NCBI GenBank assembly: GCA_050732875.1
Contig: JBOHRQ010000003.1
Coordinates: 2,821 to 66,820, forward strand
Source of the DNA: Gemmatimonadota bacterium
GTDB taxonomy: Bacteria; Gemmatimonadota; Gemmatimonadetes; JACCXV01; JAHWKZ01
Length of the DNA: 64,000 nucleotides
Direction of reading: 5' to 3'
Shown: in pieces, positions 18,986 through 57,810 of the stretch
Position numbering within the stretch: the first letter of the stretch is position 1
Layout: each line of letters starts with the position of its first letter
Made by a program: the position numbers and the translations under genes
The notes under the pieces: model-generated
Seen by the model: the letters and a program-made list of their open reading frames with translations, nothing else
Told to the model about the DNA's origin: nothing
Database searches by the model: none

Positions 18986-19152
18986 CTAGTGTGCTGAGTC
19001 AGAAGTCCGGTGAAGCACCGAGAGCCCCGCTGCGCCCCGCGGGCGAGGCGCGACGAGGAGGAATGGCAGCGCCATTCCGCACGAGTCGCAACGAAGCCCC
19101 CGGGGATGCAGCGGGGCTCGAATGCCAACGGACTTCTGACTCAGCACACTAG
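18986..19152. mobile_element. MITE copy A. This 167-bp palindromic element is Correia/IS630-like, with ~19-bp terminal inverted repeats and TA flanks at a CTAG site.
   Basis: It is near-identical to 55780-55945. The TIRs are gtgtgctgagtcagaagtc ... gacttctgactcagcacac, and nested inner inverted repeats occur (gagccccgctgc/gcagcggggctc and ggaatggc/gccattcc). Confidence 0.8.
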
Positions 19153-21326: not shown

Positions 21327-21481
21327 GATTTCGAACTTACGGGCCGGACCACCGAATTACCACGAACCCCAGCCTGTCCGGAAACCGCCAGGCGACGCTC
21401 GTAGGTCGGCCCCGGCGGACGGGATCCCGGAACTCGAGGGCACCCGGGATCCCCGCCCGATCGATCGGCCGGGCCGAACGG

Positions 21482-21835
21482 CTACTTCACCGCGAACTCG
21501 ACCACCTTCTGCCGGGCGTTCCACCTGGCCTCGAAACCACGGGACTTCTGGTGGGAGACGCCATAATGATCCAGGAACTGCCCGCTGCTCACGTAGTAGC
21601 GCTGTCCACCCTGGGGGGATTCCCGCAGCTTGTAGGTCGTACGGTCGGCTTTCCTCCGCGGCCGTAGCCCGACCTTCCTGGCCTTCGGATCGTAGAGCAA
21701 CTCCACGTTCCTGGCTCCCCCGAACCATTGATCGTAGACGCCCGGGCTGATCGAAAGATCCCCGCTCTTGAGGATGCGAATCGTCGATTTGCTCGAAGCT
21801 CGTCCCCGCTGAGGGACATAGGTCTCGAAAGCCAT
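21482..21835 (-). CDS. Hypothetical protein of 117 aa, with GC content visibly lower than its neighbours.
   Basis: The ORF has an AGGAG Shine-Dalgarno sequence 6 nt upstream of ATG. I recognise no family. It is followed upstream by an unusually AT-rich 120-bp spacer. Confidence 0.5.
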   Translation of the reverse strand: MAFETYVPQRGRASSKSTIRILKSGDLSISPGVYDQWFGGARNVELLYDPKARKVGLRPRRKADRTTYKLRESPQGGQRYYVSSGQFLDHYGVSHQKSRGFEARWNARQKVVEFAVK

Positions 21836-21951
21836 TATCGTCTCCTGAGACAAAGCATTCACAGTCGGGTGTGAGGCTGACCCGACTTTCGAAGTTTGAT
21901 CGATCCTGATGTTCCGACCCAATTTAATGCCTACCCTGTTGCGTGCCAGGA

Positions 21952-22641
21952 TTACAACAGTCCGCCATCTCGAAACGAGTAATAGGAATCGGCACCGATG
22001 ATGACATGGTCGTGGAGGGGTATGTCGAGCAGATGCCCCGCCTCCGAAAGGGCCCGCGTAACCTCGTGGTCTTCGCGGCTCGGGCTGGGGTCCCCCGACG
22101 GGTGGTTGTGGGCGATGACGATGGCCGCCGCCGAGCACGACAGGGCCGGTTTGTAGACCTCCCGCGGATGAACGATGCTGGCATTGAGCGAGCCCATCGA
22201 AACAACGACTTCGCGGACGAGCTCGTTTCGCGTATTGAGACACAGCGCGAGGAATCGCTCCCGATCGCGGTCCCGCAGCTCGAGCGAGAGGTGCCGCCAC
22301 ACGGCGCGCGGCGAGGAGAGGACCGCGCGGCGCTCGCGGCGTTCCCGCTGGAGGCGTCCGCCGAGCTCGCAGGCGGCCGCGAGCCGGGCCGCGTTGGCCG
22401 CCCCTATCCCCGGCACCGACCGGATCTCGGCGAGCGAACTCGAAGCCAGGTCGCGGAGCGAGGGATGGGCAGCGACGAGCCGGCGGGCCAGCAGATCGGC
22501 CGATGCCCCGGGTCCGCCGGACCCGATGAGAATCGTCAGCAGCTCGACGGTCGAGAGCGCCGCCGTGCCGAGCCTCTCCAGTCTCTCCCGCGGCCGCTCG
22601 CAGGCCGGACAGTCCTTGATCGAAAGGGGGACCCGCTCCAC
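21952..22641 (-). CDS. radC: RadC-like JAB/MPN domain protein (UPF0758)
   Basis: The C-terminal JAMM motif is present (HNHPSGDPSPSREDHEVT) after an N-terminal HhH region. The start is uncertain. Confidence 0.8.
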   Translation of the reverse strand: MERVPLSIKDCPACERPRERLERLGTAALSTVELLTILIGSGGPGASADLLARRLVAAHPSLRDLASSSLAEIRSVPGIGAANAARLAAACELGGRLQRERRERRAVLSSPRAVWRHLSLELRDRDRERFLALCLNTRNELVREVVVSMGSLNASIVHPREVYKPALSCSAAAIVIAHNHPSGDPSPSREDHEVTRALSEAGHLLDIPLHDHVIIGADSYYSFRDGGLL

Positions 22642-22713
22642 GCGCGCCGAAAAGGCAAGCCTCGGGCCGCCGCTTTCAGGGCAAACCACCGAGCATGTGC
22701 AAGGCGATCGGCA

Positions 22714-22845
22714 GGGCCTCCGGGGGCCGGTTCCCGGAGCGCTCAAAAATCAGCTCATTGGCAGAAATGCCGTCCGGCCTGCTGCACCAGGACGACCGCT
22801 CTCGCAGAGACGCCACGCGCTCCGGGAACCGGCCCCCGGAGGCCC
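22714..22845. repeat. Perfect 29-bp inverted repeat with a 74-nt spacer, lying between rho and radC.
   Basis: Arm 1 (22714-22742) is gggcctccgggggccggttcccggagcgc, and arm 2 (22817-22845) is its exact reverse complement. Confidence 0.8.
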
Positions 22846-22852
22846 GAACGAC

Positions 22853-23995
22853 CTACTTCGACATGCTGGCCAGCAGATCCTCGTTCGACTTCGACCGATT
22901 GATCTTCTCGATCAGGAATTCGGCGGCATCGGTCGTCCGCATCTCGGAGAGGAAGCGGCGCAACAGCTGCAGCCGCTCGAGGTGCTCTTCGGGATACAGC
23001 AGCTCCTCGCGGCGCGTCCCGCTGGCCGTCACGTCGATGGCGGGCCAGATCCGCTGTTCGGCGAGCTCGCGGCTGAGCACGATCTCGGCGTTGCCCGTTC
23101 CCTTGAACTCCTCGAAGATCACCTCGTCGGCACGGCTGCCGGTGTCCACGAGCGCCGTGGCGACGATGGTCAGGCTGCCCTCGCCGTCGCCCACGACCTT
23201 TCGGGCGGAGCCGAAGAAGCGCTTGGGAGCCTCAAGAGCGCCCGCCTCGATCCCGCCCGACATCGTCCGTCCGCTGGACCGCTCGATGGCGTTGTAGGCG
23301 CGCGCCAAGCGTGTTATCGAGTCCAGGACCAGCACCACGTCCTTGCCCGACTCCACCAGCCGGCGCGATCGCTCGAGGGCCATCTCCGCCACCTGTACGT
23401 GCCGCTCCGGCGGGAAGTCGAAGGAAGAGGCGATCGTCTCGCCGCGCCCGAGGCTCTCCACCATCCGCTCCATCTCGGTGACTTCCTCGGGGCGCTCGTC
23501 GACCAGCAGCACGATGAGCTCCGCGTCCGGATAATTCATGGCGACGCCCCTCATCACCGCCTGCAGGAGCATCGTTTTGCCGGCTTTGGCGGGAGCCACG
23601 ATCAGCGCACGCTGCCCCTTCCCCAACGGGACCACGAGATCGATGATGCGGTTGGTGACCTGGGCTCCATCCCGAAGCGCGGGCGAGAGGTCCGCCCCCA
23701 GCTCGAGGCGGAGGCGCTCGTCGGGGTGGGTGGCCCTGAGCTTGTCGAATTGCGGCCGATGGCGCGCCTCCTCCGGAGCGCCGCCGTTCACGGATGTGAC
23801 GGTCTTCAGCGGCGGGAGCTTGCCCTTTCCGGGCGGCTCGCCCACCTCACCGTCCACCGCGTCGCCCTTTCTCAGCCCATAGGACTCGATGAGTCGCGCG
23901 GGGACGTACACATCGTCCTCGCCGGGCAGATAGGCGTTCCCGAAGCGGCGCAGAACTCCGGCGCCGCCCGAGATCCGGTCAAGAATACCGATCAT
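22853..23995 (-). CDS. rho: Transcription termination factor Rho. This is a short form that appears to lack the N-terminal helical subdomain.
   Basis: The CSD-like RNA-binding region begins at the start codon (MIGILDRISGGAGVLRRFGNAYL). The Walker A motif (PAKAGKT), Q-loop and R-loop are present. In-frame upstream sequence is low-complexity and does not resemble Rho. Confidence 0.9.
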   Translation of the reverse strand: MIGILDRISGGAGVLRRFGNAYLPGEDDVYVPARLIESYGLRKGDAVDGEVGEPPGKGKLPPLKTVTSVNGGAPEEARHRPQFDKLRATHPDERLRLELGADLSPALRDGAQVTNRIIDLVVPLGKGQRALIVAPAKAGKTMLLQAVMRGVAMNYPDAELIVLLVDERPEEVTEMERMVESLGRGETIASSFDFPPERHVQVAEMALERSRRLVESGKDVVLVLDSITRLARAYNAIERSSGRTMSGGIEAGALEAPKRFFGSARKVVGDGEGSLTIVATALVDTGSRADEVIFEEFKGTGNAEIVLSRELAEQRIWPAIDVTASGTRREELLYPEEHLERLQLLRRFLSEMRTTDAAEFLIEKINRSKSNEDLLASMSK

Positions 23996-24050
23996 GAGAT
24001 TTCCTCCGACTGGATATCGTTTCCGACCCGGGCGTGGCCAGGGGTCTGGC

Positions 24051-27000
24051 TCACGCGCCGTGGCACTTCTTGAACTTCTTGCCGCTTCCACATGGGCAGG
24101 GATCGTTCCGCCCGACCTTGTCGTGCTCCCGGACGAAAGTCTGGGCCGGCGCCATCCCGGATCCCTCCCCGGCCGGCTGCGGCTGCCGATCGCCAGCGGC
24201 GACCCCGGCCGTTGCGGCCGGCGCATGGAGCGCGACCTGCTGGCGCTGGATCCGCTCCCGACGACGCCGGTCTTCGGCCGACATGTGACCGGGCTCGACG
24301 ATCCGGATCCGATACAGGACCGAGGCCGCCGTGCCCCTCAGATCGTCCATCATCGAGACGAACATCTCGAAGGCTTCCTTCTTGTATTCGATCAGGGGGT
24401 CGCGCTGTCCCCACGCGCGATATTGGATGCCGGTCTTGAGCTGGTCGAGCTCGTACAGGTGGTCGCGCCACTTCTCGTCGATGACACTCAGGAGAACACG
24501 CCGGACCACCATCTCCGCCCGCTCGGGCTCCCATTCCTCGATACGCCGTTCGAACGCGCTCTCGAGCTCCGTCTGCAGGCGGGCGCCGATCTCGTCGGGT
24601 GATCCGGGCAGGCCCTCGTCCCGAACCGGGCCGTCGTCCGACTGGGCCTCGGCCATCCGCTGAAGCCAGTCGAACGGCATGAGGAAGGAGCGCATCATGT
24701 CCTCCCGCAGGCCGGCCAGGTCCCAGTCGTCCGGGTAGCTCTCCGCATCGATGTACTGCGCCACCTTGACCTCGGCGGCCTCGCGAATCAGCTCGCGGGC
24801 CTCCTCGAACACGTCCTCGCGGTCACCCTCGAGGGCCCGCGCGCGCATGTCGTAGATGACCTCGCGCTGCTTGTTCATCACGTCGTCGTACTCGAGCAGC
24901 CGCTTGCGGATCTCGAAGTTGTTGAGCTCGACCTTCTTCTGGGCGCGCTCGATCGAACGGGTGACGAGCGAATGGGTGATGACCTCACCCTCCTCGGCCC
25001 CGAGCTTGTCCATCACCGTGGCGATGCGCTCGGACCCAAAGAGGCGCATGAGGTCGTCCTCCAGGGACAGGAAGAACCGCGACGAGCCGGGGTCCCCCTG
25101 ACGCCCGCTGCGACCGCGTAGCTGGCGATCGATCCGCCGCGACTCGTGACGCTCGGTCCCGACGATGTGCAGACCCCAGGGCATGTCTTCGCTCATCAGC
25201 CGGTCCATATCGCTCGACGACCAGCCCTCGGGAAGCTCGTCCTCGTGCACCTCCGGCCACTCTCGCGGTACGAGTCCCGGTCCCAGCTTGATGTCCGTGC
25301 CGCGGCCGGCCATGTTGGTCGCGATCGTGATGGCGCCAGGCTGTCCCGCCCGGGCCACGATCTCGGCTTCACGCTGGTGATGCTTGGCGTTCAGCACGCT
25401 GTGGGGCAGGTTCCGCCGCTTGAGCAGCCGCGAGAGGGTCTCCGATACCTCCACCGATGTCGTGCCCACCAGCACCGGGCGCTTGCGAGCGTGGTCGCGC
25501 TCGACCTCCTCGATCACCGCGTTGTATTTCTCGCGCCGCGTCCGGTACACGACATCCTCGAAATCCTCGCGACGGACCGGCTCATTGGTGGGGATGACGA
25601 CCACGTCCATCCCATAGATCTCGAAGAACTCGTTCTCCTCCGTTTCGGCGGTGCCGGTCATCCCCGCCAGCTTGTCGTAGAGCCGGTAATAGTTCTGGAT
25701 GGTGATGGTGGCGAAGGTCTGGGTCTCGCCTTCGATCCTGACGCCTTCCTTGGCCTCGATGGCCTGATGCATGCCCTCCGAGTAGCGCCGGCCCGGCATG
25801 AGACGGCCGGTGAACTGATCGACGATCATGACCTTGCCGTCCTGCACGACGTACTCCACGTCCTTCTCGTAGAGCGCGTACGCCTTGAGGAGCTGGGCGA
25901 TGTTGTGGATCGTCTCGCTCCTCTCGGCATAGTCGCGCTCGAGCTTCGTCCGCCGCTCCGTCTTCTCGCTCTCGTCGAGGTCGGGGTCCTCGTCGATCTC
26001 ATGGAGGAGCTGCGAAAGATCCGGGACGATGAACAGCTCGGGATCGTTGGGGGCGATCTTTTCGCGACCCCGGTCGGTGAGATGGGCGTCGTGGCCCTTC
26101 TCGTCCATCGCGAAGAGGAGCGCCTCGTCCAGCTCGTGGACCCGTTTCTCCCTCATGAAGTCGGCCTCGACCTTCTGGACGAGCTTCTTGACCCCGGTCT
26201 CGTTCAGCAGCTTCATGAGGCGCTTGTTCTTGGGCATGCCTCGGCGCGCCTGGAAGAGCTTGATCGCTGCCTCGTAGTCGCCGTCCTGCTCGCCTTCCGC
26301 CTCCACGACCTGTTCGGCCTCGGCCACGAGCTGGTTGACGATTCGCGTCTGTTCGCGGACCAGTCGTTCCACGAGCGGCTTGAGCTCGCCGAATCTGCCC
26401 GAGGTGTCGTGCTGGGTGGGGCCGGAGATGATGAGCGGCGTGCGGGCCTCGTCGATCAGAACCGAGTCGACCTCGTCGATGATCGCGTAGTTATGCACCC
26501 GCTGGACGCGATTCTGCGGTTCCACCGCCATGTTGTCACGCAGGTAGTCGAAGCCGAACTCGTTGTTCGTCCCATAGGTGACATCGCAGGCATAGGCCTC
26601 GCGACGCCTTTCGGGCGGCATGTCGTTCTGGATCACACCCACGGTCAGGCCCAGCCAGCGCAGGATCTCTCCCACCCATTCGGAGTCGCGGCGGGCCAGG
26701 TAGTCGTTCACGGTGACGAGGTGGACGCCCCTACCCTCCAGGGCGTTCAGATACAGCGGCATGACGGCTACCAGCGTCTTGCCCTCGCCGGTGGCCATCT
26801 CGGCGATCTTCCCCTCGTGGAGGACGATCCCGCCGAAGAGCTGGACATCGAACGGCACCATGTCCCAGGTGAAGGCCTGGTCGGTGACCTGCCACTGGCG
26901 GCCCAGATTCCGGCGGCACGCTTCCTTGACCACGGCAAAGGCCTCCGGCAGGAGATCGTCCACCGTCTCGCCCTGCGCGAGACGGTCCCGAAACTCCGCC

Positions 27001-45078: not shown

Positions 45079-47334
45079 TCAGGCGGATCCCCGGCGGGCC
45101 GCCTCGAGCTGCTCCAGCTCCTCGGCGGTGATCAGGACTTCGCGCGGCCTGGTCCCGTCCGGAGGTCCGACCACGTGCGCTCGCTCGAGCTGGTCCAGAA
45201 TCCGGGCGGCCCGCGAGTAGCCGACTTTGAGCCGGCGCTGGAGCAGGCTCGTCGACCCCTGATCGTGCTCCATGACCACGCGCGCGGCCGCGAGGAAGAG
45301 CTCGTCCCGTTCGTCCAGCGCCGCCATCTCCAGCTCCGACACCTCGGCGATGATGTCCACCGGCGGGGCCACCTCCGACGCATTGAGCACCTCGCCCGCC
45401 GCGCGCAGGTAGTCGACTACGCGCACGGTCTCGGCGGTCGAGACATACGCCCCCTGGATCCGCAGCGGCTCCGCCCGATCAGCGGGCATGAAGAGCATGT
45501 CGCCGTTGCCCAGCAGCTGCTCGGCGCCGTTCATGTCGAGGACGGTGCGGCTATCGATCTTCGAGGACACTTGAAACGAGACCCGCGACGGGAAGTTGGC
45601 CTTGATCACGCCGGTGATCACGTTGACCGAGGGCCGCTGCGTGGCAAGCACGAGGTGGATCCCGACGGCCCGGGCCATCTGGGCGAGCCGGGCGAGCGGC
45701 TCCTCGATCTCGTTCTGCACGGTCAGCATGAGGTCGGCCAGCTCGTCGATCAGGACGACGATGAAGGGCAGCGGGCGCGGATCCTCCTCGTCGAGCCAAT
45801 CCAGGTCGCTCCCGGCCCGGTGACGAGCGTTGAAGTCCTCCAGGCTCCGCACGCCGTTGGCCGCCAGAAGCCGGTAGCGCCGCTCCATCTCCGCGACCGT
45901 CCATTTCAGCGCCTTGGCCGCGTGCTTGTGCTCGACCACCACCGGGTGCAGGAGGTGCGGGATGCCATTGTAGGCGATGAGCTCGAGCATCTTCGGATCG
46001 ATCATGATGAGGCGCACGGCCTCGGGGCCGTACCGATAGATCAGGCTCGTCACGAGCGCGTTGATGCAGACGGACTTGCCGGAGCCCGTAGCGCCCGCGA
46101 TCAGCAGATGCGGCATCCTTGCCAGATCGGTCACGATCGGCGCGCCGGCGATCTCGCGCCCGAGCGCGAGCGGGAGCTTGCCGCGGAATCCATTCCACTC
46201 TGCGGCCTCCAGAATCTCGCGGATGGTGACCGTGTGCGGGCGGGTGTTGGGGATCTCGATGCCGACCGCTCCCTTGCCCGGGATCGGGGCCACGATGCGG
46301 ATGCGCTGGGCGCGCATGGCGAGCGCCAGGTCGTCGGCGAGGTTGGCGATCTGGTTCACCTTGACGCCAGGCGCGGGCTTGACCTCGAACTGCGTGAGGA
46401 CGGGACCCGAATGGATCGCCACGATCTCCCCTTCGACATGGAACGAACGCAGCTTCTCGATCAGCACGCCGCCGAGCTGTTCGAGCTCCTCGCGGGTCTG
46501 CCGGCTCCCGGCGGGAGGGGCCGGATCGAGCAGATCGATGGGGGGGATGAATCCGTCGGGCTCGAAAGAAGGCTTCTCCCTCCGGGGGCCGGGTGACGGA
46601 GGGCGCGGCGCGCCTCGCTTCGCGGTCCCCGGGTCAGCCACGGGCGGCTCGGCCTGGGCCGCCGGAGGCGGGCCGCCGTTGACCGTCGCCGCCTCCGGCT
46701 CGGGCGGCGATTCGTCCGCCGCCACTCGACCGGCGCGCCATTCCTGGACCGAGGTGCCCAGCGCCCCCATCCCGTCGCGGGCGCGGCGACCACCGGCCCG
46801 ACCGAGATCCATGCTCGTCCGGACTCCCTCCGCCAGCGAGATCCGGAAGACCACCGCTGCCAGCACGGCGACGAGGACGACGCAGGCGATCAGGGCGCCG
46901 GCCACCCCGATGGCCTCCACGGCCAGACCGGCAAGGGTTTCGCCCAGCCGACCCGCCCGCGCGCCCCAGAGCCCGCCGGCACCGCTCCAGATCGCCACCA
47001 CGCCCATCAGGACCAGCAGCGTCACGCCGGCGACCGCGGCCGCCCCGGAGATCAGGCCCGCCTTGCGCGTGACCTGGTCCAGGAAGACGAGCCCTCCCCA
47101 GACGAGCAGCAGGACCGCCGCGAGGAGGGCCCCGTACCCGAGCGCGGCATACAGATGGTACGCGCTGATGGCCCCCACCACCCCCACCAGATTCAGGGTC
47201 GAAGGGAGCCGCGAGAGGGTCGGGTCGAACGGCCAGAGCGCGAGCAGCAGGAAGATGCCCGTGGCCGCCATGAGCAGCCCGAGGACCTCGTGCCTCAGGC
47301 GGAGATGATCGCGCTTCCTCTTGCGTGGCGGCAT
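45079..47334 (-). CDS. ftsK: DNA translocase FtsK/SpoIIIE
   Basis: N-terminal TM helices and a Pro/Ala-rich linker precede the motor domain (Walker A: GATGSGKS) and the C-terminal gamma winged-helix domain. Confidence 0.9.
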   Translation of the reverse strand: MPPRKRKRDHLRLRHEVLGLLMAATGIFLLLALWPFDPTLSRLPSTLNLVGVVGAISAYHLYAALGYGALLAAVLLLVWGGLVFLDQVTRKAGLISGAAAVAGVTLLVLMGVVAIWSGAGGLWGARAGRLGETLAGLAVEAIGVAGALIACVVLVAVLAAVVFRISLAEGVRTSMDLGRAGGRRARDGMGALGTSVQEWRAGRVAADESPPEPEAATVNGGPPPAAQAEPPVADPGTAKRGAPRPPSPGPRREKPSFEPDGFIPPIDLLDPAPPAGSRQTREELEQLGGVLIEKLRSFHVEGEIVAIHSGPVLTQFEVKPAPGVKVNQIANLADDLALAMRAQRIRIVAPIPGKGAVGIEIPNTRPHTVTIREILEAAEWNGFRGKLPLALGREIAGAPIVTDLARMPHLLIAGATGSGKSVCINALVTSLIYRYGPEAVRLIMIDPKMLELIAYNGIPHLLHPVVVEHKHAAKALKWTVAEMERRYRLLAANGVRSLEDFNARHRAGSDLDWLDEEDPRPLPFIVVLIDELADLMLTVQNEIEEPLARLAQMARAVGIHLVLATQRPSVNVITGVIKANFPSRVSFQVSSKIDSRTVLDMNGAEQLLGNGDMLFMPADRAEPLRIQGAYVSTAETVRVVDYLRAAGEVLNASEVAPPVDIIAEVSELEMAALDERDELFLAAARVVMEHDQGSTSLLQRRLKVGYSRAARILDQLERAHVVGPPDGTRPREVLITAEELEQLEAARRGSA

Positions 47335-55779: not shown

Positions 55780-55945
55780 CTAGCGTGCTGAGTCAGAAGT
55801 CCGGTGAAGCACCGAGAGCCCCGCTGCGCCCTGCGGGCGAGGCGCGACGAGGAGGAATGGCAGCGCCATTCCGCACGAGTCGCAACGAAGCCCCCGGGGA
55901 TGCAGCGGGGCTCGAATGCCAACGACTTCTGACTCAGCACACTAG
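55780..55945. mobile_element. MITE copy B, 166 bp. It is the same element as 18986-19152 and is inserted at the CTAG stop of the metH-metF fusion gene.
   Basis: It differs from copy A by two substitutions and one 1-bp indel, and has the same TIRs and TA flanks. Confidence 0.8.
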
Positions 55946-57810
55946 CGTGCGATCAGCCCGTCGAGCACCTCGAGCGCCATCTCGTAACGACCGAACGGGG
56001 GCATCACGTAGGCCCCCTGAACGCCAGGCACGCCCCTGACCGCGGCCAACGCTTCGCGCGCGATGTCCACCCCCAGGGCGGCCGCCTCGCGGCCATCCAC
56101 GACCCGCCGCATCCGCTCCCGGACCGCCTCGGGTATGCGCATCCCCGGCACCTCGTTGTGCAGAAACTCCGCGTTGCGGAACGAATACAGCGGCAGGATG
56201 CCTGCCAGGATCGGGATCGGGAGCGGACCCACCTCCGCCACGAAGTCCGCCAGGTCCCCGGCGTCGAAGATCGGCTGCGACATGGCGAAGCGGGCCCCGG
56301 CCTCGATCTTCCGTCGGAAGCGCTCCACCTCGAGCGCGCGGTCCACGGCGCCCGGGTTCACCCCGACCCCGACGTGCAGATCGAGCGGGACACCGGTCTC
56401 CTTTCCGGCGGCATCCAGCCCGAGCGTCAGCCGGCTCGCCACGCGCACGAGCCCGATCGAGTCGACATCGAAGACGGCGGTGGGAACCGCGTACTCCCCC
56501 GCCTTGGGCGGATCCCCGGTGATGATCAGCACGTCGCGGACGTCCAGGGCATGGGCGGCCATCAGGTCGGCCTGCATCCCGTAAAGATTGCGGTCGCGGC
56601 AGCAGTAATGGATGATGGTTTCGACCGGGACGCGATCGCGCAGCACCCGGGCGATCGCCAGCGGAGTCACACGCGGAGAGATGCGGGCGTATTCCGGGAT
56701 GTTGACGGCGTCGACCCCGGTCTCGGCGATGTCCCGGACCGCCGCCACCAGCGACCCGAGATCGGCGCTCGTCGGCGGGGTGAGCTCCACCGAGACGACG
56801 AACCGGCCCTCGGCCAGTCGCCGGGCCAGCTCCGTGGGGCGGACATCGGGCCGTGAAACCGCGGCCCGGACCGGTTCGGCCTCGACCTCTTCGACGACGG
56901 TGACGCGGACCTTCGGAGCATACCTCTGGACGGAGTGGACCATCGTCCGCACGTGCTCCGGGGTGGTCCCGCAGCATCCTCCGAGCAAGCGCACGCCGGC
57001 CTGGACGAAGCGCTTGGCGTACTTGCCGAAATACTCCGGCCCGGCCATGTACATGAGCCGCCCCTCGACCGACTGCGGCAGCCCGGCGTTCGGCATCGCC
57101 GCCAGAAAGGCCCCGTTGCCGCCCTCCATCCGGACCAGACAGTCGAGCATGGGCCGGGGACCCACGCTGCAGTTGGCACCGACGACGTCGGCCCCCGATT
57201 CCGCCAGTCGACGCGCGACCAGCTCCGGCCGGTCTCCCGACTGGGTCAGCCCTTCCTCGGTGAAGCTCATCATGGCGACGACCGGAATAGCGTCGTCGAG
57301 AGCGCGAATCGCCGCGAGGGCCGCGTCCATCTCGACCAGGGACGGGATCGTCTCGACGACCAGCAGGTCCACACCGCCCTCGAGCAGGGCCGCGGCCTGC
57401 TCGGCGAAGATCCCTCGCATGTCATCGACGTTGTATCCGCCGGCGACCTGACCGGTCACGCCGATCGGGCCCATCGATCCGCCCACCCAGGCCCGCTCCC
57501 CCCCCGCCTCGCGGGCGAGCCGGGCTCCGGCCCGGTTGATCTCCGCCACCCGGTCCTCGAGACCGTGCCCAAGCAGCCGGGCGCGGTTCGCCCCGAACGT
57601 GTTGGTCTCCAGCAGCTCGGCCCCGGCGGCCACGTAAGCGGCATGGATCTCCCGGATCATGTCCGGGCTGGACACGCAGAGCTCGTCGAAGCAGCGATTG
57701 ATGAACACCCCTCGCTCGTAGATCTGCGTACCCATCGCGCCATCGGCGACCAGCACGCCCTCGGCGAGGCGCTCGAGAAACCCGTCTCCGCGGTTCGACG
57801 ATCGTGTCAC
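55942..57810 (-). CDS. Bifunctional homocysteine S-methyltransferase / 5,10-methylenetetrahydrofolate reductase (YitJ-like)
   Basis: An N-terminal homocysteine-binding Pterin/Hcy domain (GAMGTQIYERG...GGCCGTTPEH) is fused to a C-terminal MetF domain. The TAG stop lies within the MITE's CTAG. Confidence 0.85.
   Translation of the reverse strand: MTRSSNRGDGFLERLAEGVLVADGAMGTQIYERGVFINRCFDELCVSSPDMIREIHAAYVAAGAELLETNTFGANRARLLGHGLEDRVAEINRAGARLAREAGGERAWVGGSMGPIGVTGQVAGGYNVDDMRGIFAEQAAALLEGGVDLLVVETIPSLVEMDAALAAIRALDDAIPVVAMMSFTEEGLTQSGDRPELVARRLAESGADVVGANCSVGPRPMLDCLVRMEGGNGAFLAAMPNAGLPQSVEGRLMYMAGPEYFGKYAKRFVQAGVRLLGGCCGTTPEHVRTMVHSVQRYAPKVRVTVVEEVEAEPVRAAVSRPDVRPTELARRLAEGRFVVSVELTPPTSADLGSLVAAVRDIAETGVDAVNIPEYARISPRVTPLAIARVLRDRVPVETIIHYCCRDRNLYGMQADLMAAHALDVRDVLIITGDPPKAGEYAVPTAVFDVDSIGLVRVASRLTLGLDAAGKETGVPLDLHVGVGVNPGAVDRALEVERFRRKIEAGARFAMSQPIFDAGDLADFVAEVGPLPIPILAGILPLYSFRNAEFLHNEVPGMRIPEAVRERMRRVVDGREAAALGVDIAREALAAVRGVPGVQGAYVMPPFGRYEMALEVLDGLIAR

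Follow-up and report, generated by a model that had tools for sequence, protein, structure and literature searches.

Downstream of rho, the DNA described here, from a soil bacterium of the Gemmatimonadota, carries a long perfect palindrome whose arms differ in sequence among related lineages while staying complementary to each other. The explanation that we favour, with roughly even confidence, is that this is a U-less gene-end hairpin that arose by inverted duplication and whose arms have been kept complementary by template switching or arm-to-arm conversion. The palindrome occupies the same position between rho and radC in all carriers, is single-copy in the available sequence (64 kb and 21 kb, see below), contains an inverted copy of the last rho codons, and lies in a gap that diverges much more than the genes on either side of it. 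Positions are those of the window, by which we mean the whole 64-kb stretch of DNA that was analysed.

Anatomy and gene context of the palindrome

The two arms, at positions 22714-22742 and 22817-22845, are exact reverse complements and enclose a spacer of 74 nt at 22743-22816 (a 29-74-29 layout); the arm at 22714-22742 reads GGGCCTCCGGGGGCCGGTTCCCGGAGCGC. The preliminary description had given both the coordinates and the arm sequence exactly, and its characterization of the spacer as AT-richer agrees with a G+C content of 59.5%, compared with 86% in the arms and 68.5% in the window. On the minus-strand transcript the 5' arm corresponds to 22817-22845 and the 3' arm to 22714-22742. Seven bases (GTCGTTC) separate the rho TAG from the first arm, which begins at the eighth base past the stop codon, matching the distance of about 8 nt noted previously. 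The stem is followed by UGCCGAUCGCC, and there is no T-tract after the second arm, as had also been remarked. A perfect stem of 29 bp had been considered very unlikely to occur by chance, and the numbers bear this out: for spacers of at most 200 nt, the number of perfect 29-bp inverted repeats expected in the window is approximately 2e-9, and none of 100 shuffles contained a matching 29-mer, even with up to three mismatches allowed. Within the 64-kb window the rho-radC palindrome is the strongest local inverted repeat. Folding of the region in silico, which had been proposed as a check, gave a minimum free energy of -125 kcal/mol for RNA (z = -7.4) and -62 kcal/mol for DNA (z = -7.6). A 14-nt exact match to part of an arm is present at 46579-46592 (CCTCCGGGGGCCGG); it does not extend further and has no partner arm, and we judge it to be a chance match in GC-rich sequence.

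Imperfect complementarity continues beyond the perfect arms to 51 nt per arm (84%), spanning 22692-22867 and reaching into the last rho codons. The outer 5' part of the stem on the transcript (22846-22867, minus strand) is made of the last four codons of rho, its stop codon and the 7 nt that follow, so that the end codons AGC ATG TCG AAG contribute to the outer stem. Its counterpart on the 3' side (22692-22713, minus strand) repeats the end of rho in inverted form (…CACATGCT). Each arm also has a dyad of its own, CTCCGGG-N8-CCCGGAG, located at 22820-22841 in the 5' arm and at 22718-22739 in the 3' arm.

The gene order on the minus strand is secA, rho, palindrome, radC, a gene encoding 117 aa and relA/spoT; genes called within 10 kb on either side encode BamD-like, nucleotidyltransferase, SecA, Rho, RadC, hypothetical, RelA/SpoT, LolA, UvrB and other proteins. 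The rho gene (22853-23995, minus strand) encodes 380 aa followed by TAG, with Pfam matches to PF07497 (Rho_RNA_bind) and PF00006 (ATP-synt_ab). The protein is 100% identical to P0001, a protein from a Gemmatimonadota metagenome-assembled genome (contig CCZJMN010000109.1, GCA_973786185.1) that is also called at 380 aa. Rho of this lineage starts directly at the cold-shock-like RNA-binding domain, and no Rho_N helix bundle was found by Pfam. The open reading frame of rho extends upstream to 457 codons through an arginine-rich stretch; all close homologues are called at 380 aa.

Downstream of the hairpin, radC (21952-22641, minus strand; 229 aa; PF04002 and PF20582) begins with a GTG at 22641. 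About 13 nt upstream of this start lies a conserved sigma54-like -24/-12 motif, GGC-N7-TTGC (22655-22668, minus strand), outside the palindrome and 40-70 bp downstream of the arms. The motif is invariant in every relative, both in those numbered L002 to L135 and in the outgroups L005, L089, L093, L097, L131 and L132. Since the motif precedes radC whether or not a hairpin is present, a separate promoter for radC is probable. A loose sigma54 pattern is not enriched within the window, so it is the conservation among relatives that carries the promoter reading; this conservation suggests RpoN-dependent, perhaps leaderless transcription of radC.

Other structured or repeated sequences are found nearby. 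Canonical hairpin-plus-U terminators are not enriched in the region (8 vs 5.3 ± 2.5). The gap between the 117-aa gene and relA/spoT contains, at 21327-21481, a second strong GC-rich hairpin that also lacks a U-tract. The same hairpin is present in two relatives (L121, 3998-4120; L123, 3992-4116), where the stem sequence differs between alleles and the pairing is kept; 35 of the 125 positions in this gap differ between the two. U-less gene-end hairpins may be the rule in these genomes. In addition, the window contains two copies of a MITE-like repeat of approximately 167 bp (18986-19152, adjoining the relA/spoT stop codon, and 55780-55947), which are 99% identical over a stretch of 145 nt and have a 27-bp terminal inverted repeat (CTAGTGTGCTGAGTCAGAAGTCCGGTG). 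The rho hairpin is unrelated to this repeat in sequence, as had been stated before.

Distribution, arm co-variation and divergence in relatives

Relatives were identified through contigs encoding close Rho proteins. A long hairpin at the same rho-radC site is found in 13 distinct alleles belonging to five rho lineages: A (the window and L108-L110), B (L002 and L004), C (L111-L120), D (L121-L128) and E (L135). Identity at third codon positions of rho among these carriers goes down to 0.58, and every sampled member of the five lineages keeps the palindrome. In relatives with a Rho identity of 82-87% (L005, L087-L106, L131, L132), which retain the secA-rho-radC order, there is no hairpin and the rho-radC gap measures 34-82 nt. 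A metagenome scan with Rho peptide patterns, which are generic, returned only Rho loci of 50-54% identity (L007-L086). In the comparison of rho 3' regions that the preliminary description had called for, the hairpin is present in five rho lineages and missing at a Rho identity of 87% or less. Because it is missing there in spite of the conserved synteny, the palindrome represents a single gain of approximately 130-150 bp in the ancestor of a narrow group; judged by this distribution, it is a young, lineage-specific addition rather than a conserved attenuator.

The arms of different alleles differ considerably from each other. The left arms of the window and L002 have only 18 of 30 positions in common, yet each matches its own partner at 29 of 29. 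A left arm is complementary to its own right arm at a mean of 27.4 of 30 positions and to the right arms of other alleles at 21.1 of 30; approximately one third of the arm positions change across the 13 alleles while the arms stay complementary. RNAalifold run on a plain MAFFT alignment recovers the stem, and 11 of its 21 pairs are changed on both sides. Counted on the same alignment with RNAalifold's own structure, the covariation score is 0.305 compared with 0.153 in shuffles (reached by none of 500), and slid controls gave 0.02-0.15. Column-wise counting of pairs on an arms-only MAFFT alignment was dropped, since gaps are not mirrored in it; besides the RNAalifold structure, left arms were aligned jointly with reverse-complemented right arms.

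Perfect stems measure 29 bp in the window and in L002, 27 bp in L112, 36 bp in L126 and 39 bp in L121 and L125, where the stem reaches into the rho stop codon; L122 has a perfect stem of 23 bp beside a one-base indel. None of these perfect stems contains a G·U pair. A single-base indel that distinguishes L002 from L004 is mirrored in the opposite arm. Six alleles (L004, L108, L111, L115, L123, L135) have one to four mismatches, so complementarity is not always maintained. The mismatches are of mixed types (G·U, C·A and transversions) and show no bias towards G·U on the sense strand, and hence there is no positive sign of selection on the RNA. The dyad inside the arms takes the general form TCCGGG-N8-13-CCCGG(A/G), with half-sites conserved across alleles and a variable middle, and the centre-to-centre spacing of the arms is 101-104 bp across alleles. 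A reading of this dyad as a loxP-like recombinase core site was rejected, because the distance between its half-sites is not constant, ranging from 8 to 13 bp across alleles.

The spacer has a length of 72-75 nt in all alleles, even though those of the window and L002 can hardly be aligned. Its folding is no stronger than that of shuffled sequence, with z-scores between -0.6 and +1.5. For the spacer of clade C, an alignment with the spacers of B and D is obtained solely when these are reverse-complemented (scores of 20-44 vs -8 to 0), and its orientation is opposite to that in A, B, D and E. Each lineage has a single orientation across contigs (approximately 25 contigs from many samples). Because the match is confined to the reverse complement, the segment between the arms must have been inverted once. 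A smaller change separates L121 from L126. Two of the three differences between them are adjacent substitutions in the spacer, at about positions 45-55 of the element (CCGTTAATCGG to CCGTTCAACGG), by which a stem of 3 bp has been extended to a near-perfect palindrome of 11 nt; the genes on either side are identical over 1.8 kb. This change resembles a template-switch event on a small scale.

Near-identical strains are 8-26% divergent in the stretch from rho to radC, and divergence in this gap exceeds that of the flanking genes 10- to 75-fold. Between L002 and L004 we counted 51 differences in 193 gap positions, compared with 0/760 at the end of secA, 4/1143 in rho and 0/399 in radC. Similarly, L111 and L112 differ at 15/191 gap positions (rho 0/1143, radC 1/690) and L121 and L123 at 46/193 (rho 9/1143, radC 16/690), the end of secA not being separated in these two comparisons; for L121 and L126 the counts are 3/192 in the gap, 0/1143 in rho and 0/690 in radC. 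Other gaps are mostly quiet, with 0/58 between secA and rho and 1/117 and 5/118 between radC and the hypothetical gene.

Between lineages B and D the divergence of the gap is 0.24 vs 0.16 at third codon positions, or about 1.5 times. Divergence of the gap within a clade equals that between clades (L002 vs L004, 0.26; L002 vs L121, 0.24). The gap of L004, which has a rho of lineage B, is closest to that of L123 of lineage D (0.13 vs 0.26 to its clade-mate L002), and the allele tree conflicts with the rho tree, alleles being common to different rho lineages. Uniform hypermutation was rejected as the sole cause of the variability on account of the modest excess between B and D and of the conflict between trees. 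The same modest excess, together with the closeness of L004 and L123, means that exchange of short patches of the gap between lineages must contribute; the equality of divergence within and between clades and the conflicting trees indicate that much of the variability is due to recombination rather than to template switching in place.

Origin, upkeep and possible role

The origin of the palindrome is indicated by its flanks. In all alleles the reverse complement of the right flank reads GCATGTCGAAG…, which corresponds to the end codons of rho. These codons are native to rho, because outgroups without the palindrome end in the same way, and the inclusion of host coding sequence points to an inverted duplication rather than an insertion. 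We therefore favour, at the even confidence stated at the outset, the following course of events. An inverted duplication would have taken in the last rho codons and produced a long palindrome in the rho-radC gap. From then on, one arm would be copied from the opposite arm at the DNA level, either by template switching during replication or by arm-to-arm conversion, and exchange of the whole gap between lineages in short patches would add further variability. Template switching has been reported as a source of perfect stems, multi-base compensatory changes and loop inversions (PMC8794818). Copying at the DNA level would explain why perfect stems of 27-39 bp contain no G·U pairs, why the opposite arm compensates for multi-base changes and for one indel, why the spacer is flipped in one lineage, and why changes cluster in the gap. 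The anatomy, the orthology, the co-variation of the arms, the inversion, the hypervariability of the gap, the single copy in the available sequence and the inverted rho codons are observed directly, whereas we infer this mechanism from the pattern of changes and any role at the RNA level would likewise be inferred.

With respect to function, a stable stem-loop without a U-tract stands at the 3' end of rho, and all alleles fold likewise. The rho transcript would fold into a GC-rich stem of 29-39 bp starting 0-8 nt past the stop codon. Such a gene-end hairpin could block 3'-5' exonucleases, mark or insulate the 3' end of rho and possibly serve as a substrate for RNase III; in that case, radC would have to be expressed from the sigma54-like promoter in front of it. 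Our best guess is that the hairpin stabilizes or delimits the rho mRNA and insulates radC. The preliminary description had offered three readings (a structure regulating read-through from rho into radC, a small MITE and a structured ncRNA), and a structure acting on rho read-through into radC seems the most plausible function among them. In Escherichia coli, transcripts terminated by Rho have their 3' ends marked and protected by stable stem-loops that lack a U-tract, and rut sites lie just downstream (PMC6061677). In the B and C alleles the 21-25 nt past the hairpin are rich in C (0.48-0.54) and poor in G (0.04-0.12); no C-rich tract follows the hairpin in the window allele, by manual count, or in L108. 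Three of the six hairpin-less outgroups (L089, L093 and L097) have C-rich, G-poor tracts of 20-37 nt directly past the rho stop codon (C 0.47-0.55, G 0.05-0.25), which are not found in L005, L131 or L132. These outgroup tracts could be rut-like sites through which Rho acts on its own transcript. Speaking against a gene-end role are the loop of 72-75 nt, far longer than in known terminators or protective stem-loops, and the outgroups without the hairpin, which make it dispensable in the wider family. Both weigh against a strong requirement for the hairpin.

The palindrome might also have no function, being a replication accident, neutral or selfish, that template switching re-perfects and that does little harm between genes. 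We regard this as somewhat unlikely, and of the alternatives it fares best. It agrees with the absence of the hairpin from all relatives with a Rho identity of 87% or less, where it is evidently not needed, with perfect stems free of G·U pairs, with a spacer that has no fold of its own and can be inverted, and with the several alleles that are decaying through one to four mismatches. It accounts less well for the retention of the palindrome in every sampled member of five lineages despite the usual deletion bias of bacteria, for lengths of the arms (29 bp) and spacer (72-75 nt) that are held where the sequence is almost unalignable, and for the conserved dyad half-sites inside the arms.

Unlikely, in our view, is a more elaborate version of events, in which the palindrome is a self-correcting cassette and recombination hot spot whose interchangeable insulator or terminator alleles tune rho read-through to a sigma54-controlled radC-relA gene cluster. 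The hairpin would then itself provoke breaks or template switches, as a result of which the arms would be re-perfected, the loop flipped and the gap replaced by alleles of other lineages.

It is quite improbable that the arms are paired DNA operators, or upstream activator sites, of the sigma54-type radC promoter, that is, dyad-symmetric candidate sites brought together by a DNA loop. The dyad half-sites TCCGGG and CCCGG(A/G) are indeed conserved around a variable middle, the centres are held 101-104 bp apart (about 103 bp being roughly 10 helical turns), the conserved GGC-N7-TTGC lies 40-70 bp downstream, and such a role would be independent of spacer orientation and so fit the inversion. However, a gap between half-sites that varies within 8-13 bp would be unusual if a dimer bound there, two protein sites have no need to match base for base over 29-39 bp, and the sigma54-like motif is kept in outgroups that have no palindrome. 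The loose sigma54 pattern is not enriched in the window.

An inverton also comes to mind, given that a short segment lies between inverted repeats and that both of its orientations are represented among the lineages; a recombinase would flip the 74-bp segment and thereby alter how radC or the rho 3' end is expressed. The size fits, more than 75% of invertons in one PhaseFinder-based study being shorter than 300 bases (PMC11602134). Against this, the segment shows one fixed inversion only, with one orientation per lineage in approximately 25 contigs; its repeats lack the sequence conservation expected of a recombinase site, and no recombinase is found among the called neighbours within 10 kb on either side. 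No promoter is recognised inside it: a promoter scan of 21500-24500, applied to the window allele only, gave no sigma70-like site, reading the spacers of other alleles gave no shared promoter-like motif, and the conserved promoter-like motif of radC lies outside. We consider an inverton very improbable.

Slightly less probable again is the insertion downstream of rho of a mobile element, MITE or REP-like, perhaps on several independent occasions and in different orientations. Several features could be taken for it: perfect terminal inverted repeats on a 132-bp element, an insertion relative to the outgroups, the opposite spacer orientation, which could mimic insertion in the opposite orientation, and the presence of an unrelated MITE-like repeat in the window. 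Nevertheless, comparing the flanks of five perfect alleles gave no direct repeat that would represent a target-site duplication, and the search for further copies of the 29-mer, suggested in the preliminary description together with the MITE reading, found none in the 64 kb of the window or in 21 kb around L135; these two results make a MITE very unlikely. Viral contigs do not contain a 22-mer taken from the arm, nor, except for one chance match in Streptomyces, do 185,579 species genomes of a collection in which the source genome, or its allele, is not represented. A 17-mer across the arm-spacer junction gave nothing in viral contigs, or chance matches in coding-like sequence. Furthermore, all carriers have the palindrome at the same position between homologous flanks, and it extends into native rho codons, present as an inverted copy, so that it is not independent of host sequence.

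Finally, a structured small RNA, whether the 74-nt spacer released from the stalk of the arms or the hairpin as a whole, is the least probable reading and hardly tenable: although the long stem around some 74 nt resembles a processing stalk and is situated in a 3' region that is transcribed, the spacer folds like shuffled sequence, is almost unalignable between A and B and reverse-complemented in C, the window has no Rfam match at gathering thresholds (the relaxed matches are generic miRNA hairpins, the best being MIR918 at 36 bits vs 268), ARAGORN finds no tRNA or tmRNA, and no small ORF on either strand of the gap is conserved, two alleles being without any of at least 18 aa.

Significance and comparison with known systems

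Taken alone, the locus merely adds to the gene-end hairpins of an uncultured lineage of Gemmatimonadota. Its value is in illustrating, by a case from nature, the way in which long perfect stems come about and are retained, here with the last codons of an essential gene swallowed by the palindrome. It provides a usable test case for distinguishing template switching from selection on RNA pairing, for palindrome-centred recombination, and for the marks of transcript 3' ends in high-GC phyla without canonical terminators. It is also a warning that a perfect inverted repeat need not be a MITE or a riboregulator.

Among repeated elements, REP/BIME, ERIC and the Correia elements of Neisseria are multi-copy, the latter with TA duplications. 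The palindrome is similar to them in being a structure of 130-170 bp in a transcribed gap between genes of the same strand, where an RNA duplex could alter stability or cutting by RNase III; it differs in being single-copy in the available sequence, in having no duplication and in including host coding sequence. With intrinsic (Rho-independent) terminators it has in common a GC-rich stem immediately past the stop codon. These terminators, however, have loops of 3-8 nt and a U-tract, whereas the hairpin has a loop of 74 nt and no U-tract, and a scan with the intrinsic-terminator consensus does not report it.

A related process by which hairpins are maintained in bacteria is quasi-palindrome correction. 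The closer parallel is with the template-switch hairpins described by Monttinen and Loytynoja in 2022 (PMC8794818), with which the rho-radC palindrome shares perfect reverse-complement arms, compensated multi-base changes and an inverted loop, as well as a mirrored indel and the extension of an inner palindrome. The published cases are mainly short stems of rRNA and microRNA with loops of about 4 nt, whereas the present one is intergenic with an inverted loop of 74 nt, and part of its variability comes from allele exchange between lineages.

The stem-loops described by Dar and Sorek in 2018 (PMC6061677) are likewise stable and GC-rich, follow the coding region directly and lack a U-tract; some alleles also have the C-rich, G-poor stretch behind the hairpin, and canonical terminators are not enriched in the region. 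Unlike those stem-loops, the rho-radC hairpin has a much larger stem (29-39 bp) and loop (72-75 nt), is confined to a narrow lineage and has no C-rich tract in the window allele. Rather than a new class of element, we see in it a gene-end palindrome of kinds that are already known, if unusually large, fast-changing and self-consistent, and it is best filed under both the U-less 3' stem-loop and the template-switch-maintained hairpin.
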